Origin: Patescibacteria group bacterium
Lineage (GTDB): Bacteria > Patescibacteriota > Microgenomatia > UBA10105 > UBA927
Direction of reading: 5' to 3'
Assembly (NCBI GenBank): GCA_035510735.1
Contig: DATKGN010000004.1
Span: 243,810 to 307,809, forward strand
Length of the DNA: 64,000 bases
Both the position numbers and the translations under genes were made by a program. The notes beneath the pieces are model-generated. The model made no database searches. It was not told the origin of the DNA and was given only the letters and a program-made list of their open reading frames with translations. Positions 6,186-62,370 of this stretch are shown here, in pieces; positions within the stretch are counted from its first letter, which is position 1; the number at the start of each line of letters is the position of its first letter.

Positions 6186-6213
6186 CCCTCCTTCGCGTAA
6201 AGCTTCGGAGGGC
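6186..6213. repeat. Hairpin repeat family 2 copy (CCCTCC-TTCGCGTAAAGCTTC-GGAGGG)
   Basis: Perfect 6 bp stem with a conserved loop. Near-identical copies at 20560-20588, a variant at 30644-30700, and a reverse-orientation copy inside tsaD at 15184-15209. Confidence 0.6.
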
Positions 6214-13912: not shown

Positions 13913-14437
13913 ATGGAATTAGTTGTTCTCGTTGATGATCAAAATAACGAATTAGGGACACGCCCGAAAGATGATGTTCATTCGAATCATACGCCGCTCC
14001 ATCGCGGATTTTCCCTTTTTCTGTTTAATAATAAACATGAATTATTGATCACCCGTCGTACGCATACAAAAAAAACGTTTCCCGGTGTGTGGACGAATAC
14101 AGTCTGCGGTCATCCCGGTCCGGGTGAACAGGTCATTGATGCGGCTAGGCGCCGGTTAAAAGAAGAGATGGGGGTCGGGGGCGTTGATGTGAAAGAAGTG
14201 TCACCGTACCGATATAAGTTTACCGATATTCATGGAATTGTGGAAAATGAAATATGTCCAATTCTCATTACATTTGCCGATGTGAAACCAAAAATAAATG
14301 AGCGGGAGGTGGCGGGGTGGAAATGGATTCCATGGAAAGATTTTCTCACCGAAATACAGCTTAATCCATCGTCGTATTCACCGTGGAGTATTGAAGAGGC
14401 GGAAATTATTAAAAGATTAAATCTTCTCAACGGATAA
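13913..14437 (+). CDS. idi: Isopentenyl-diphosphate delta-isomerase type 1 (Nudix family)
   Basis: LHRGFSLFLFN...TFPGVWTNTVCGHP...GE...AARRRLKEEMGV matches the IDI-1 active-site region. 174 aa. Confidence 0.75.
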   Translation: MELVVLVDDQNNELGTRPKDDVHSNHTPLHRGFSLFLFNNKHELLITRRTHTKKTFPGVWTNTVCGHPGPGEQVIDAARRRLKEEMGVGGVDVKEVSPYRYKFTDIHGIVENEICPILITFADVKPKINEREVAGWKWIPWKDFLTEIQLNPSSYSPWSIEEAEIIKRLNLLNG

Positions 14438-15622
14438 ATCAGGAACTGCCGTGATATCGTGCCAGTTGGTGGGCGAACCCCTGAAATACGCATAGCTTGC
14501 AATATATACGGCGTTATCGGTGCACAGTGCTACCGGTGGCACAAACATTGTTATATTGTTATATTGTTTTATTGCTGAGTTCATTTTTTCTCTTAGCCGC
14601 AGATTAGCGGCAACGCCTCCCGATAAAAGAATTGATTTCGCCTGATGTATAGAAGCTGCATGGAGAGTTTTTTTCACCAGCACATCCGTTATGGACTCCT
14701 GGACTTCATAGGCTAATGCGCTTGTCATTCCGGCCTCCGAGCTGGAATCTATTTTTTTCGGGGTGGATCCCGGGTCAAGCTCGCCTCGCTGACGCGGCGA
14801 AGCGGGCCCGGGATGACATTTATTCCATTCTCGAAGAACCGCAGTTTTCAGTCCCGAAAAGGAAAAATTAAGCGATTTATCATGCATTAACGGACGCGGT
14901 AACTTAATTCTTCCCGTTGTCATTCCGGCCTCTGAGCCGGAATCTATTTTTTTCGGGGTGGATCCCGGGTCAAGCCCGGGATGACATTGAGAGGCCGCTT
15001 CCTGAATTGCCGGTCCTCCGCGGTTTTCAAATCCCAACAGTCTCGCCGTTTTATCAAACGCTTCTCCCGCCGCGTCATCGAGCGTACCTCCGAGCCATGT
15101 TAAATCCTTAATAGATTTCATGAGATAAAGCTCAGTATGACCGCCGCTAACGACAAGAGAGATGGCGGGAAACTCGATGCTTGCCCCGCGAAGCTTTAGC
15201 GAAGTGGGGTTGTCCCTCGACTGCGCTCGGGACGAATTTTGTCCTTCGTCATTGCTCAGGACAAAATTCGCATACATGTGGGCGAGAACGTGATTAACGG
15301 GGATGAGGGGTTTACCGGTCGTAAACGCAATTGTTTTTGCCGTTTCAACGCCGACGAGAAGAGAGCCGATGAGTCCCGGTCCGACGGTGATTGCGATTTG
15401 ATCGATCGATGCAAGCGTTTCCTTTGATTGTTTAAGGGCTTCTTCAATTGTCGGGATAATGCAGACAAGCTGCTCGCGCGCAGCCACTTCAGGGACGATG
15501 CCGCCGTATTTTGCGTGCATGAGTGTCGAACTTGCAACAACACTTCCCAGGATTGTTGTACCGTTCTCAACAACGGCCGCCGCCGTTTCATCGCAGGATG
15601 ATTCTATACTCAAAATTTTCAT
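14417..15622 (-). CDS. tsaD: tRNA N6-adenosine threonylcarbamoyltransferase TsaD, with three in-frame repeat-element insertions
   Basis: MKILSIESSCDETAAAV...HAKYGGIVPEVAAREQ and SGGHTELY core motifs. 401 aa, above the ~335 aa I recall for TsaD (from memory). The extra peptides coincide with the palindromic DNA elements. Confidence 0.88.
   Translation of the reverse strand: MKILSIESSCDETAAAVVENGTTILGSVVASSTLMHAKYGGIVPEVAAREQLVCIIPTIEEALKQSKETLASIDQIAITVGPGLIGSLLVGVETAKTIAFTTGKPLIPVNHVLAHMYANFVLSNDEGQNSSRAQSRDNPTSLKLRGASIEFPAISLVVSGGHTELYLMKSIKDLTWLGGTLDDAAGEAFDKTARLLGFENRGGPAIQEAASQCHPGLDPGSTPKKIDSGSEAGMTTGRIKLPRPLMHDKSLNFSFSGLKTAVLREWNKCHPGPASPRQRGELDPGSTPKKIDSSSEAGMTSALAYEVQESITDVLVKKTLHAASIHQAKSILLSGGVAANLRLREKMNSAIKQYNNITMFVPPVALCTDNAVYIASYAYFRGSPTNWHDITAVPDLSVEKI
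14723..14818. repeat. MITE-like palindromic element family 1, copy B (96 bp), in frame within tsaD
   Basis: Termini TGTCATTCC...GGGATGACA. Internal hairpins TTCCGGC/GCTGGAA and ATCCCGGG/CCCGGGAT. Has a 28 bp extra hairpin relative to copy A. Translates as ...CHPGPASPRQRGELDPGSTPKKIDSSSEAGMT. Confidence 0.75.
14919..14986. repeat. MITE-like palindromic element family 1, copy A (68 bp), in frame within tsaD
   Basis: Same termini and hairpins as copy B, near-identical. Translates as CHPGLDPGSTPKKIDSGSEAGMT. Confidence 0.75.
15184..15275. repeat. Composite hairpin insertion inside tsaD (family-2 loop motif plus two further palindromes)
   Basis: Contains CCCCGCGAAGCTTTAGCGAAGTGGGG (reverse complement of the family-2 loop), GTCCCTCGACTGCGCTCGGGAC, and the 11 bp stem GAATTTTGTCC...GGACAAAATTC. 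Encodes the extra TsaD segment VLSNDEGQNSSRAQSRDNPTSLKLRG between HMYANF and FPAISLVVSGGHTELY. Confidence 0.6.
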
Positions 15623-16083: not shown

Positions 16084-16107
16084 AGGTTATCACTCGATTG
16101 TTTCATT

Positions 16108-30643: not shown

Positions 30644-30700
30644 CCCCCTTCGCAAATGGCTTCCGCCTTCGCTAAAGCTTCGTCGGACAAGTCGGGCGGA
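30644..30700. repeat. Hairpin repeat family 2, tandem degenerate variant
   Basis: CCTTCGCAAATGGCTTCCG followed by CCTTCGCTAAAGCTTCG, flanked by CCGCC...GGGCGG. Confidence 0.45.
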
Positions 30701-40604: not shown

Positions 40605-41444
40605 TTATGTCGGGAGTGTAAACAGCGTCCGGGCGTTTTTGGTTGTTTGCTCTTCTACTTCAGTGTAGGGGATATTGAGCAATTCCGCAATTTTGTGGGC
40701 CACGAGCGGAATGTTTTTGGGTTCATTCCGCTGCCCGCGGTGGGGGATGGGGGTCAAATACGGCGAATCGGTTTCCAAAAGTATCATAGAAAGCGGGATT
40801 GACGGGACAATGAGTTGCAGTTGTTTTGAAAAGGTGAGATTGCCGTCGATGCCGACAAATAGATTTCTTCGTTTCGCTTCACGAAGGTCCTGAAGCCCGC
40901 CGGAGAAACAATGAATGACCCCTCGCGGCATGGTTGGGACATTGTCCATGACGTCAAAGAAGTCTTCATACGCATCGCGGCAGTGCATGATCACCGGCAG
41001 ATTATGGTTGAGGGCAATGCGGAGTTGTTCCTCAAACAGAATTTTTTGTTCCTGTTTTTTCCCGGCGGCCACCTCGCCCTTAAATAAATGGTAATCCAGG
41101 CCGATCTCGCCGATTGCTATTATTGTCATTCCAGGCTTGACCTGGAATCCATCTTTGTTATTGCCCGAATCGGGATCCCGGATCGGGGTCCGGGATGACA
41201 ATATTAATTGTTCAAGAGCGTTAAGATCGTGTTCATGTGACGCTTCATATGGGTGAAAGCCGATACTTGCGAAAACAACACCAGCATTATTTCTCGCAAG
41301 TTGTATTGCAAGCGTCGAAGAAAACATATCAACGCCGGGACAGATAAACTGTTTGACCCCGGCTTTTTTGGCATTCCCGATGACCATGGCACGGTCGTCA
41401 TTGAACTGTTCAAACATGAGGTGACAGTGGGTGTCGATGAACAT
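40605..41444 (-). CDS. tatD: TatD-family metal-dependent hydrolase/DNase, with an in-frame repeat insertion
   Basis: MFIDTHCHL start and IAIGEIGLDY. The tracked ORF extends to 41582 through repeat copy D; the likely true start is ATG 41444. A 25-residue insert is encoded by repeat copy C. Confidence 0.78.
   Translation of the reverse strand: MFIDTHCHLMFEQFNDDRAMVIGNAKKAGVKQFICPGVDMFSSTLAIQLARNNAGVVFASIGFHPYEASHEHDLNALEQLILSSRTPIRDPDSGNNKDGFQVKPGMTIIAIGEIGLDYHLFKGEVAAGKKQEQKILFEEQLRIALNHNLPVIMHCRDAYEDFFDVMDNVPTMPRGVIHCFSGGLQDLREAKRRNLFVGIDGNLTFSKQLQLIVPSIPLSMILLETDSPYLTPIPHRGQRNEPKNIPLVAHKIAELLNIPYTEVEEQTTKNARTLFTLPT
41124..41200. repeat. MITE-like palindromic element family 1, copy C (77 bp), in frame within tatD
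   Basis: TGTCATTCC-AGGCTTGACCTGGAATC...ATCCCGGATCGGGGTCCGGGATGACA. Encodes SRTPIRDPDSGNNKDGFQVKPGMT. Confidence 0.7.
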
Positions 41445-53614: not shown

Positions 53615-53815
53615 CTAAAGTAAGAGGTCGTCATCCTGAAACCCCCGGTCACTATTGAGTGATACATTTAATTCCATGACATGGGCGGGAATGTCAGCGA
53701 TGAATCGTGAAATCATATTTTGTGTCCGCGTGCCGAAAAACAGCCCCCCCTGTTGGCGTACATTAGGTAGAGTTTTTCTTTTTGTCCTTGTGCTTTTTCA
53801 CTGTATTTCAAAGTA
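53615..53815 (-). pseudogene. Remnant of a UvrD-family helicase C-terminus (frameshifted stub)
   Basis: Minus-strand translation gives ...AQGQKEKLYLMYANRGG/LFFGTRTQNMISRFIADIPAHVMELNVSLNSDRGFQDDDLLL*. This is close to the C-terminus of the intact helicase at 56619-58487 (KLYLTYANRRLFFGTRTQNMISRFIADIPAHVLELNVSLNADRGFNDDDMLL*). One frameshift falls in a G7 run. No helicase core lies upstream. Confidence 0.6.
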
Positions 53816-61003: not shown

Positions 61004-62370
61004 TGACCGTCAGACCCAAAAATTTCCGATTCGACGGTAAAGTTCGTCGTACCTACCGGAATCGTATAATCAAGTGTATATTCGCCTGCGCTATTTTGTA
61101 TTGCCGTTTCGGTAAACGCGCCGCCGTTGACACGGATATGCGCCTTTGTTGCATTGCCACCCGCAACTGCAATCGTCACGTCATCGCCCGGTTGAAGAGC
61201 AGCGAGCCCTGCCGCATCCAGCACGGTAGTTCCTTTATAGACCTTAATATTCGTACATTGAGAAGCAGGAGTAGGAGTGGGTGTGCTACCCCCTCCGCCG
61301 CCACCCCCTCCGCCGCCACCCCCTCCGCCGCCACCGTTAGAGGTCGTCACTGTACAACCAATGGTATTTTGACCGCCACTCGAGGCACATGTCGTATAGT
61401 GCCAATTAGCACAAGCGTCTGCATTTTGTCCCTGATCGCATCCTACTCCGGCTGGCACCCATGTTTGGCCAGGCCCGGGTGTAGGAATTACACCAGTCTT
61501 TGGATCTGGGGTTGGGAATACGATCGGTGGTAATTTACCGCTTGCATCAAGGTTTGCCTGAGGGTTAGAGACAACTTCAACCCCTGGATTAGCTATGGCA
61601 AATTTAAGTGCTGCTGTTTCTGTATCCGGCAATGCAATAATGAACCGCTGACCGTTTGAAATATAGGTGCCGGCGATCTGTACAGGATTAGAGCCTGTGG
61701 TAGCCTGCCACTGCTCTTTCGTGGCAACTGTAGTGGTACCGCTTATCGTTCCGTAAGTATTTACTGGTGCAGTTGCCGCCGCGGCCGCCGGAGCTGCTGT
61801 TGCCGGAGCTGCTGTTGCTGCTGCCGCAGCCTGCTGAGCGTTATAGTTATCATTTTTCGCCTCCTGGTTTGCGTTAATGTGTGCACAATATCCGTTTGAT
61901 TTATCACATGCAAAACCAAAAAGGGTAAGGGTATTTTTTATACCAATGACTGCAACGGGCAGAGTAACGAGCATAAACAAGAGAAGCGTGATAACCCCCA
62001 CGCGGGATTTCTTTTTTTTGATCGTCTCATGCGGCGGAGTTACCGGTTCTGCCGGCGGACTTTGCTTCGGATCCGAAGGCTTTGCTATTTTTATTTCCTC
62101 CTCAGGTGGAGGGACGATAAGAGAATCTGAAGGAGGCGACGCCATAAAGGGAGAGCCCGAAAGCGGTGTAGGCGTTGGAGGATCCTGCGTGTGGCTTGGG
62201 GTGGCAGAATCCGGCAGTGTTTGCGTCGGTTGTCCGGCAGGTGATGCACTTAAGGGAGAATTGGTCGACATCGGGTCTGGTGGCGGAGGCGCGACCGACG
62301 CCGGCGCAGATCCCTGCGAACCTGCTTTACTACTTGTATCTGCTTGTGCTGTGTCTAAAATGTCTGCCAT
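60994..62370 (-). CDS. Surface/secreted protein with Pro-rich N-terminus, TM helix, poly-Ala/Thr and poly-Gly low-complexity tracts
   Basis: G17 run encoded by three 15 bp tandem repeats (CCCCTCCGCCGCCAC x3, 61289-61333). AAAAATAAPATAAPAAAAATAP encoded by repeated gccggagctgctgtt units. Confidence 0.5.
   Translation of the reverse strand: MADILDTAQADTSSKAGSQGSAPASVAPPPPDPMSTNSPLSASPAGQPTQTLPDSATPSHTQDPPTPTPLSGSPFMASPPSDSLIVPPPEEEIKIAKPSDPKQSPPAEPVTPPHETIKKKKSRVGVITLLLFMLVTLPVAVIGIKNTLTLFGFACDKSNGYCAHINANQEAKNDNYNAQQAAAAATAAPATAAPAAAAATAPVNTYGTISGTTTVATKEQWQATTGSNPVQIAGTYISNGQRFIIALPDTETAALKFAIANPGVEVVSNPQANLDASGKLPPIVFPTPDPKTGVIPTPGPGQTWVPAGVGCDQGQNADACANWHYTTCASSGGQNTIGCTVTTSNGGGGGGGGGGGGGGGGSTPTPTPASQCTNIKVYKGTTVLDAAGLAALQPGDDVTIAVAGGNATKAHIRVNGGAFTETAIQNSAGEYTLDYTIPVGTTNFTVESEIFGSDGQWH

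Follow-up and report, generated by a model that had tools for sequence, protein, structure and literature searches.

Tiny hairpin repeats that nest and occur inside genes are familiar from the very small dispersed repeats of cyanobacteria and from the GC-cluster and byp elements of yeast mitochondria. Here we describe three small hairpin DNA units, designated P1, P2 and P3, which are piled up in the tsaD gene of a Patescibacteria group bacterium, within a stretch of 64,000 nucleotides (positions 243,810 to 307,809 of contig DATKGN010000004.1, assembly GCA_035510735.1; hereafter, the window), and which probably represent a translated, tolerated passenger in a permissive loop of the TsaD enzyme. 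Among described systems, the closest parallel is provided by Rickettsia palindromic elements (RPEs), palindromic repeats of ~100−150 bp which, in the account of Ogata et al. (2000, 2002) given in PMC10969869, are confined to Rickettsia and lie in frame within unrelated as well as essential genes. Repetitive extragenic palindromes and the related REPIN sequences (REP/REPIN) are short (20−40 nt), imperfect, dispersed palindromes, often paired in inverted orientation or clustered in tandem; by location they are extragenic, and they require the REP-associated tyrosine transposase, RAYT (PMC3116915). Transposable elements of the miniature inverted-repeat type (MITEs) that reside within genes and make in-frame fusions include intragenic ERIC and BOX elements and Coxiella QMITE1 (PMC10969869). 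Finally, template switching and quasipalindrome correction, described for RNA genes and mutational hot spots, give rise to perfect hairpins and multi-base compensatory changes and also sustain them (PMC8794818, PMC7202029).

The tsaD units resemble each of these systems in some respects and depart from them in others. Like RPEs, they are palindromic DNA located in frame at a permissive position of an essential gene, the conserved open reading frame (ORF) of which is intact, and are apparently read through as extra peptide; as in the case of RPEs, several families coexist in one genome, and P1 and P2 are multi-copy. Compared to RPEs, taken here by their description, the tsaD units are small (22−38 nt), stacked and nested, and are hosted by Gottesmanbacteria-like Patescibacteria; the P2 family spans many phyla, P3 uses native codons as one of its arms, and a single tsaD loop has been struck by at least four families, with turnover between close relatives. 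RPEs are thus the closest parallel, with the tsaD case falling outside on size, sequence and host. P2 has in common with REP/REPIN sequences that both are short dispersed palindromes, found as inverted pairs or in tandem (for P2, in metagenome contigs), with stems covarying within families, whereas REP/REPIN sequences are extragenic by definition and the tsaD copies are intragenic and in frame. Intragenic MITEs and tsaD units alike are small non-autonomous repeats tolerated inside ORFs; the tsaD units show no evident terminal inverted repeats matching an insertion sequence and no clear target-site duplication, and are several-fold smaller. P3 agrees with template-switch hairpins in having an arm that is the reverse complement of the adjacent sequence, a perfect stem and compensatory multi-base differences. 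However, translated protein loops are not among the described products of template switching, and P1 and P2 are not explained by this process. The cyanobacterial repeats and byps come from other lineages and have other sequences; moreover, byps are bypassed, whereas the frame and stop pattern in tsaD indicates translation.

The window gene encodes a TsaD protein that we aligned with 120 homologues (55−71% overall identity), so that counts given below are out of 121 sequences. Its ORF is intact, and the metal-binding residues H111 and H115, as well as D369, are conserved (invariant columns in the alignment). The whole three-unit stretch corresponds to window positions 15179−15270 of the minus strand. 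The features of the gene, with sequences given for the coding strand, are as follows.

14417..15622, minus strand: tsaD coding sequence, 401 amino acids (Pfam TsaD, E-value = 3.5e−76)
15179..15262, minus strand: variable loop segment V121−S148, VLSNDEGQNSSRAQSRDNPTSLKLRGAS, in frame according to the ORF list and orthologue comparison
15179..15208, minus strand: P1 unit, 30 nt (10 codons), CCCACTTCGCTAAAGCTTCGCGGGGCAAGC, encoding PTSLKLRGAS; its palindrome spans 15184−15209
15212..15233, minus strand: P2 unit, GTCCCGAGCGCAGTCGAGGGAC, encoding SRAQSRD; a copy of the dispersed 20-mer TCCCGAGCGCAGTCGAGGGA
15233−15270, minus strand: P3 hairpin, 38 nt in total, with perfect 13-nt arms (100% complementary)
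15233..15245, minus strand: P3 copy arm, AGGACAAAATTCG, encoding G-Q-N-S; an inverted copy of the native arm
15258..15270, minus strand: P3 native arm, CGAATTTTGTCCT, the A-N-F-V-L codons
15241..15262, minus strand: unit A, the inner part of P3, GTCCTGAGCAATGACGAAGGAC, encoding VLSNDEG; degenerate and P2-like, with 16 of 22 bases as in P2

Segment VLSNDEGQNSSRAQSRDNPTSLKLRGAS is flanked by HMYANF, with which the metal-binding HxxxH helix ends, and by the block IEFPAISLVVSGGH. It is extra in comparison with minimal orthologues, which have just 3−5 residues at this site (e.g. ANFIGGTTIEFP), the minimal form being ANFIGGT-IEFP. In phmmer alignments with the solved bacterial TsaD chains 8iey and 6nak, query residues 122−147 fall into a gap where the structures have only 2−3 residues, in keeping with a permissive surface position; two further gaps, at query residues 212−239 and 265−301, correspond to the other two tsaD inserts described below. 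An AlphaFold model made with 30 homologues, in which the core is confidently predicted (predicted TM-score, 0.81), places a predicted disordered loop between helix 111−120 and strand 153−158. In this model residues 124−152 are without secondary structure and residues 126−141 have a predicted local distance difference test score below 50. The segment is presumably translated, judging from the intact ORF, from the fact that every insert seen at the site in orthologue DNA is a multiple of three and stop-free in the used frame, and from the composite stretch itself, which is stop-free in the used frame alone, the other sense frames containing stops. Taken whole, the 110 nt fold with a z-score of −3.0 as RNA and −3.3 as DNA, and none of 200 shuffles was as good. 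P3 by itself has an RNA folding energy of −19.8 kcal/mol with a z-score of −6.1, a fold matched by 0 of 200 shuffles. By folding energy P2 and P1, with z-scores of −1.6 and −1.3, are weak, and the reality of these two units rests on their family membership.

Several other identities of the segment were considered. An assembly artefact or a pseudogene was rejected in view of the shared architecture in independent assemblies and of the intact ORF. Intrinsic terminators were rejected too, as P1, P2, P3 and the intergenic P1-type hairpins were all unflagged and have no T/U tract. A search of Rfam 15 at permissive thresholds with the window region and 14 P2 loci returned sub-threshold chance matches only, protein searches with the duplicated insert peptide and with a 65-aa segment including its flanks yielded no scored candidates, and a literature search by sequence, by peptide and by in-frame palindromes in the Candidate Phyla Radiation (CPR) found no description of these units.

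P3 is the strongest of the three palindromes and the one that is not dispersed. One of its arms is native coding sequence: GCG AAT TTT or near variants occur in insert-free orthologues as well (e.g. at the empty site of locus L273), and the arm adjacent to the native GCG AAT TTT GTC is its reverse complement, as is characteristic of template switching. The pattern CGAATTTT...AAAATTCG was found in the window and in the loci of eight relatives (six distinct tsaD genes), always at this tsaD site. Outside tsaD it was detected neither in the window nor in the 276 loci examined, and a scan of viral contigs gave 120 chance matches, none in tsaD. The inner stems vary by lineage and stay complementary (GTCCT/AGGAC, CTTTC/GAAAG, GTTC/GAAC, CTTGAG/CTCAAG, GTTGAG/CTCAAC and TTGAT/ATCAA), the stem difference between L275 and L276 being a G-C to C-G swap. 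In a hand-built alignment of the arms across orthologues, 95.4% of stem cells were paired and four pairs had changed on both sides; the covariation score was 0.332, a value reached in 0 of 500 shuffles, against 0.122 for shuffled alignments, and slid controls scored far lower. The pairing is visible even in the protein, where the residue after ANF covaries with the residue before NS (Val-Gln in 10/10 and Leu-Glu in 10/10 cases; Fisher test, 1e−5). Ile after ANF, for which pairing would require a TAA stop codon, is found with Glu, Lys or Gln, the mismatch being kept; in L277 the A/G mismatch of the stem is precisely the one predicted, and the inner stem is preserved. G.U pairs in the stems are not in excess over A.C mismatches, leaving strand-specific RNA selection unsupported. 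As for unit A, a closer version, GTCCCGAACGTAGTCGAAGGAC, occurs in L085.

P2, in turn, is a member of a cross-phylum family. The exact 20-mer was found in at least 120 stretches of metagenome contigs. Among the matches listed, none is in tsaD, the GC content of the contigs ranges from 0.34 to 0.73, and the usual context is GTCA-core-TCT, with frequent tandem arrays or inverted pairs; inverted pairs occur in L183 and L193 and tandem arrays with a period of 36 or 45 nt in L094 and L131, these being GC-rich soil contigs. A related variant, GTCATTCTGAGCG..., was observed in the flanks of L123 and L169. P2 and this variant suggest a superfamily with the outer signature GTCAYYCC...GGRRTC. Across P2-type tsaD orthologues the block AAT TCG TCC CGA GCG CAG TCG AGG GAC is near-invariant in nucleotides: at synonymous sites the identity reaches 0.91 in this P2 block versus 0.41 in the rest of tsaD, which argues that P2 is a DNA-level element. 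In L275, CCCC...GGGG replaces TCCC...GGGA, forming a compensated pair, and L277 has another paired variant. In line with a DNA-level element, at the same tsaD site of L274 the P2 hairpin is read in another frame, giving IPSGVEGS, and a P2 left-half remnant in L087, TCGTCCCGAGCG, is also in another frame. The tsaD gene of L085 (L085 10001−11113) has a 27-nt in-frame insertion inside the P2 loop, which carries a 22-nt hairpin, GGATGTACCATTCGGTACGTCC, encodes the peptide GCTIRYVPQ and is bounded by a 5-nt direct repeat, CGCAG.

The hairpin family of P1 keeps its loop constant and varies in its stems, and members of it are found both in tsaD and between genes. In tsaD, P1 is a clean 30-nt addition after GGGACAAC, present in the window and in L081 and lacking in L275 and L083; its flanks, GGGACAAC and GGGGCAAGC, are similar, although not identical. 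One further homologue, P0004, has ENSSRAQSRDNPTSPRLRGAS, i.e. P2 plus P1 as in the window. The pattern CTTCGC-N(0-3)-AAAGCWWCG has four matches in the window versus 0.01 expected, and none of 100 shuffles reached four. The 16-mer CTTCGCTAAAGCTTCG of tsaD P1 recurs exactly at 30667−30682, whereas in the copies at 6191−6207 and 20566−20582 the loop is one base longer (CTTCGCGTAAAGCTWCG); the 3′ tail GGGCAAGC is common to tsaD P1 and the 6187 copy. The intergenic members are the following.

6187..6211, plus strand: intergenic P1-family hairpin CCTCC-TTCGCGTAAAGCTTC-GGAGG, then the tail GCAAGCC, 56 nt past a stop codon
20562..20586, plus strand: intergenic P1-family hairpin in the groES-groEL spacer, fold z −4.6
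30667..30682, plus strand: exact copy of the P1 loop (16 nt), intergenic and arranged in tandem, local fold z +0.7, not significant

The third of these lies in a region (30640−30705) of tandem P1-like loops, CTTCGCAAATGGCTTCCG followed by CTTCGCTAAAGCTTCG, just past a stop codon; one frame of this region reads PPSQMASAFAKASSDKSGGQA. In the groES-groEL spacer of L089 (~5003−5093) there is an orthologous hairpin with the same P1 loop and a different stem, and in that of L087 (~422−518) the outer stem GTCCT/AGGAC is kept and the interior is different; L088 is without a hairpin. The P1 16-mer was also found in 63 stretches of viral contigs, corresponding to 51 unique contexts; in 18 of these the directly adjacent flanks are complementary over at least 4 bp, with at least 14 different stem sequences. 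The orientation of P1-type hairpins in viral contigs relative to neighbouring ORFs showed no clear bias.

These observations bear on the first-pass annotation of the window, which had described a composite hairpin insertion in tsaD built from three palindromes, one of them sharing a loop motif with intergenic hairpins, and had linked it to a genome-wide population of small repeats. The composite nature of the insertion and the shared loop were borne out. All three palindromes exist as well, yet they differ in kind, the strongest, P3, being neither dispersed nor made up entirely of added sequence. The link to a small-repeat population holds for P1; P3 is restricted to tsaD, and P2 has a single copy in the window and belongs to a cross-phylum family. 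Contrary to the outcome that would have refuted the annotation, orthologues that share the peptide do so through the same DNA rather than unrelated DNA, and the loop motif is far more frequent in the window than chance would have it. In addition, the insert is not private to the genome of the window, P3+P2 being present in about a quarter of the homologues and P1 in P0004.

The site occupied by the three units is a hot spot of several unrelated hairpin families. At least five extra residues are present there in 88 of the 121 sequences, which makes it the busiest of five TsaD insertion sites, with at least four hairpin/peptide families, and in 41 homologues (about a third) the insert is short or absent. 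The P2 type (P3+P2 module), recognizable by the motif (E/Q)NSSRAQSRD, accounts for 31−33 sequences depending on the filter; other recurrent loop families include VIPxxxx...DDK types, FTVHS...MNHEP and TIQQFNNRT, among others. Among the homologues, one bears the name Candidatus Gottesmaniibacteriota, and the label of several others reads Patescibacteria or Candidatus. In a search of cluster representatives, most distant CPR-type TsaD proteins had 8−50 low-complexity residues at the site; a genome scan with universal TsaD motifs gave, among the matches listed, distant relatives only (35−45% identity). Loop type is unrelated to the similarity of the core: P2−P2 pairs have a mean identity of 0.715 and P2−other pairs 0.719, and most homologue pairs with 85−93% core identity differ in loop type.

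At the DNA level, we compared 13 syntenic orthologue loci with the common gene order VanW, CTP-transferase-like, tsaD, NUDIX and pre-ATP-grasp. As the first-pass annotation had proposed to check, close relatives do differ in presence or absence at the site. L087 (GCA_964385705.1) has flanks of 83−84% nucleotide identity over more than 4 kb on each side, neighbour proteins 90−98% identical to those of the window and a TsaD that is 92.6% identical outside four variable loops, and in all four loops the sequence is unrelated. At the site L087 has VPSEKPSTMNHEPIT, which shares with the window just GTC CYG AGC and has no P3 copy arm. The codons bordering the site in the window resemble those of L087, so the difference arose by local insertion and deletion and not by import; homologous replacement by a distant allele was rejected on the same grounds. 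Some other differences were noted in the neighbourhood. Immediately upstream of tsaD, several relatives (L087 5477−6697; L086, L276 and L277) have a gene for a major facilitator superfamily (MFS) transporter, which is missing from the window; in L087, L086 and L276 it is located between the CTP-transferase-like gene and tsaD. Between the window and L087, the CTP-transferase-like gene has diverged to an unusual degree (nucleotide identity of 69% versus 83−84% in the flanks). In L088, three consecutive DUF6922 + AbiEii gene pairs stand beside tsaD (11726−15570).

The reading that we consider the likelier one, with a fair measure of doubt, is that three small hairpin DNA units have piled up in a permissive TsaD loop, partly by insertion and partly by copying in place, as a translated and tolerated passenger. 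According to it, the units would land in the surface loop of TsaD that is the most permissive, which connects the metal-binding HxxxH helix to the strand FPAISLVVSGGH, and would be transcribed and translated straight through into ~23 extra disordered residues which the enzyme tolerates, the segment being presumably neutral for its function. P2 and then P1 would have been brought in by insertion as copies of dispersed-family hairpins. P3, by contrast, would have been made in place, as an inverted copy of the adjacent native Ala-Asn-Phe-Val codons produced, most simply, by replication template switching or fold-back copying, and the same copying process, or selection, would keep its stem perfect as the sequence drifts. 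Existing hairpins appear to draw in others at their tips and feet, and palindromes of some length are prone to deletion; together, these two tendencies would make the loop turn over quickly, with the surviving inserts filtered only by staying in frame and free of stops. The sequences themselves show the anatomy of the stretch, the families to which its units belong, the in-frame state, the predicted disorder, the stem covariation, the hot spot and the turnover, whereas translation, neutrality, template switching and the way in which the units move are inferred.

A number of observations sit uneasily with this reading. Neither the 64-kb window nor the ~130 kb of DNA from relatives that lie outside tsaD contain another copy of the P2 core, so that local activity of the family is unproven, and no clear target-site duplication surrounds P1 or P2. 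We identified no transposase and no other function that would mobilise the units, the window not having been screened for one. Translation and neutrality of the segment are what we infer from the sequences. On the sense strand, the stems contain G.U pairs and A.C mismatches in about equal numbers, which does not discriminate between constraint at the DNA and RNA levels. Furthermore, the P3|P2 junction, AAAATTCG|TCCC, is identical in all P2-type genes and fits one ancient insertion better than repeated ones. On the other hand, a single old insertion would need constraint on P2 across otherwise saturated synonymous sites, and our model supplies none. The recurrence of the junction in lineages that are not nearest to each other could mean that an old state was retained with many losses, for which, in its own lineage, the L087 remnant speaks; it could also be due to repeated site-specific acquisition, or to short-patch exchange.

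Alternatively, the whole segment could have been built in place by repeated short-range template-switch or quasipalindrome events, its resemblance to other hairpins being convergent. The native arm of P3, the perfect stems and the multi-base compensatory differences are what such events would leave behind; unit A and P2 look like mutual tandem copies, outer stems are conserved with inner parts swapped both in tsaD and in the groES-groEL hairpin, and the mechanism exists (PMC8794818). Yet exact 20-nt identity of P2 to at least 120 unrelated loci at 34−73% GC cannot be convergent, and P1 is a clean 30-nt insertion with a 16-nt loop and a GGGCAAGC tail that match intergenic copies, which renders an entirely local origin unlikely. 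Unlikely, too, is the view that the hairpins, and P3 above all, are a selected cis-acting structure, acting in mRNA stability, processing, translational pausing or as a protein-binding DNA hairpin, with the peptide as a by-product. P3 is tsaD-specific and its pairing is conserved with covariation despite the coding constraint; different hairpin families fill the site in other orthologues, as if any hairpin could serve; P1-family loops are constant with stems that vary, an orthologous intergenic position being one instance; and the nucleotides of P2 are conserved beyond what the protein needs. But template switching yields covariation without selection (PMC8794818), and the structure is dispensable, since 41 homologues have no or only a short insert and L087 lacks the P3 copy arm. 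Nor does loop type correlate with phylogeny, and there is no Rfam family, no terminator-like T tract and no excess of G.U over A.C.

Explanations at the level of the product fare worse. An adaptive protein loop with a conserved amino-acid sequence, contacting TsaB, TsaE or tRNA or serving as a lineage-specific regulatory tail, appears very unlikely. The loop does adjoin the metal-binding helix, the motif (E/Q)NSSRAQSRD recurs in many homologues, and most CPR TsaD proteins are long at this site. The conservation, however, is at the nucleotide level and includes synonymous sites, the P2 hairpin DNA is used in different frames in L274 and L087 with unrelated peptides as a result, and the predicted disordered, low-complexity loop is entirely replaced between close relatives. 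We find it barely credible that the hairpins are absent from the mature product, through removal from mRNA or ribosome bypass as in T4 gene 60 or mitochondrial byp elements: strong hairpins inside a coding region do resemble bypass or take-off structures, and the size of the inserts (~30−90 nt) is comparable, whereas inserts that are all multiples of three and stop-free only in the used frame are expected only if translated. P3 alone, at 38 nt, would shift the frame on excision, and the sequence shows no evident pair of take-off and landing codons that match.

Returning to the view of the units as passengers that were partly inserted and partly copied in place, we tentatively put forward a further idea, unlikely as it may be, on the mode of P1 and P2 mobility. 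Hairpins might propagate without a conventional transposon if cores such as P2 and P1 were to insert preferentially at the tips or feet of hairpins already there and gain their stems by fold-back or template-switch copying of the flanks. This would explain families with constant loops and variable stems, stems built from native codons, and the presence of the same module at the same essential-gene site in lineages that are not the closest. If so, a replication-linked process would keep writing new disordered loops into conserved CPR proteins, and the cross-phylum conservation of the P2 20-mer would mark a recognition site for a widespread, as yet unnamed cellular or mobile machinery.

The window contains additional repeats, some of them also in tsaD. 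Two further tsaD inserts, at 14722−14820 and 14917−14990, are of the GTCATTCC...GGGATGAC type, encode peptides CHPG..LDPGSTPKKIDSxSEAGMT and share 95% identity over 62 nt. The former contains an extra nested palindrome at ~14784−14805, and both have, on the plus strand and thus antisense to tsaD, a hairpin of terminator-like form with a T run (14727−14748 and 14922−14943). L087 has unrelated short sequence at both sites. A gene for a TatD-like hydrolase (40605−41582, minus strand) carries two in-frame GTCATTCC...GGRATGAC hairpin inserts, at 41124−41200 and 41453−41522, with the sequences NVIPDLIGDPVFEFEIPAFAGMT and SSRTPIRDPDSGNNKDGFQVKPGMT, and GTCATYCC occurs 14 times in the window versus 4.2 expected. 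A repeat of the ATTGTTATATTGTT type at 14547−14576 encodes the C-terminal TsaD loop KQYNNITM; the same type (TIQQFNNRT) occupies the main tsaD loop in other orthologues and also forms an intergenic hairpin with a 25-bp stem at 16105−16178 (DNA fold z −5.3), between the upstream neighbour of tsaD and the VanW-like gene. Elsewhere, a 122-nt direct repeat with 75% identity is found at 53619−53740 and 56623−56744, 3 kb apart, and a tandem 15-nt repeat, GCCACCCCCTCCGCC, is present in at least three overlapping copies at 61285−61335, inside overlapping ORFs.

The analysis adds two families whose conservation is unexplained and which are unnamed in Rfam and in the searchable literature, one with a constant cross-phylum 20-mer and the other with a constant loop and free stems. 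The Val-Gln/Leu-Glu covariation, together with the mismatch kept where pairing would call for TAA, offers a clean example of base pairing under coding constraint. More generally, essential conserved enzymes of the reduced CPR genomes can bear loops written by selfish or mutational hairpin DNA and not by protein-level selection, and such loops can be replaced wholesale between close relatives. This has consequences for homology modelling and for the practice of inferring that CPR-specific insertions are adaptive. The tsaD site, with dozens of alleles at one position, provides a natural system in which to follow how small palindromes arise, move, nest and decay.

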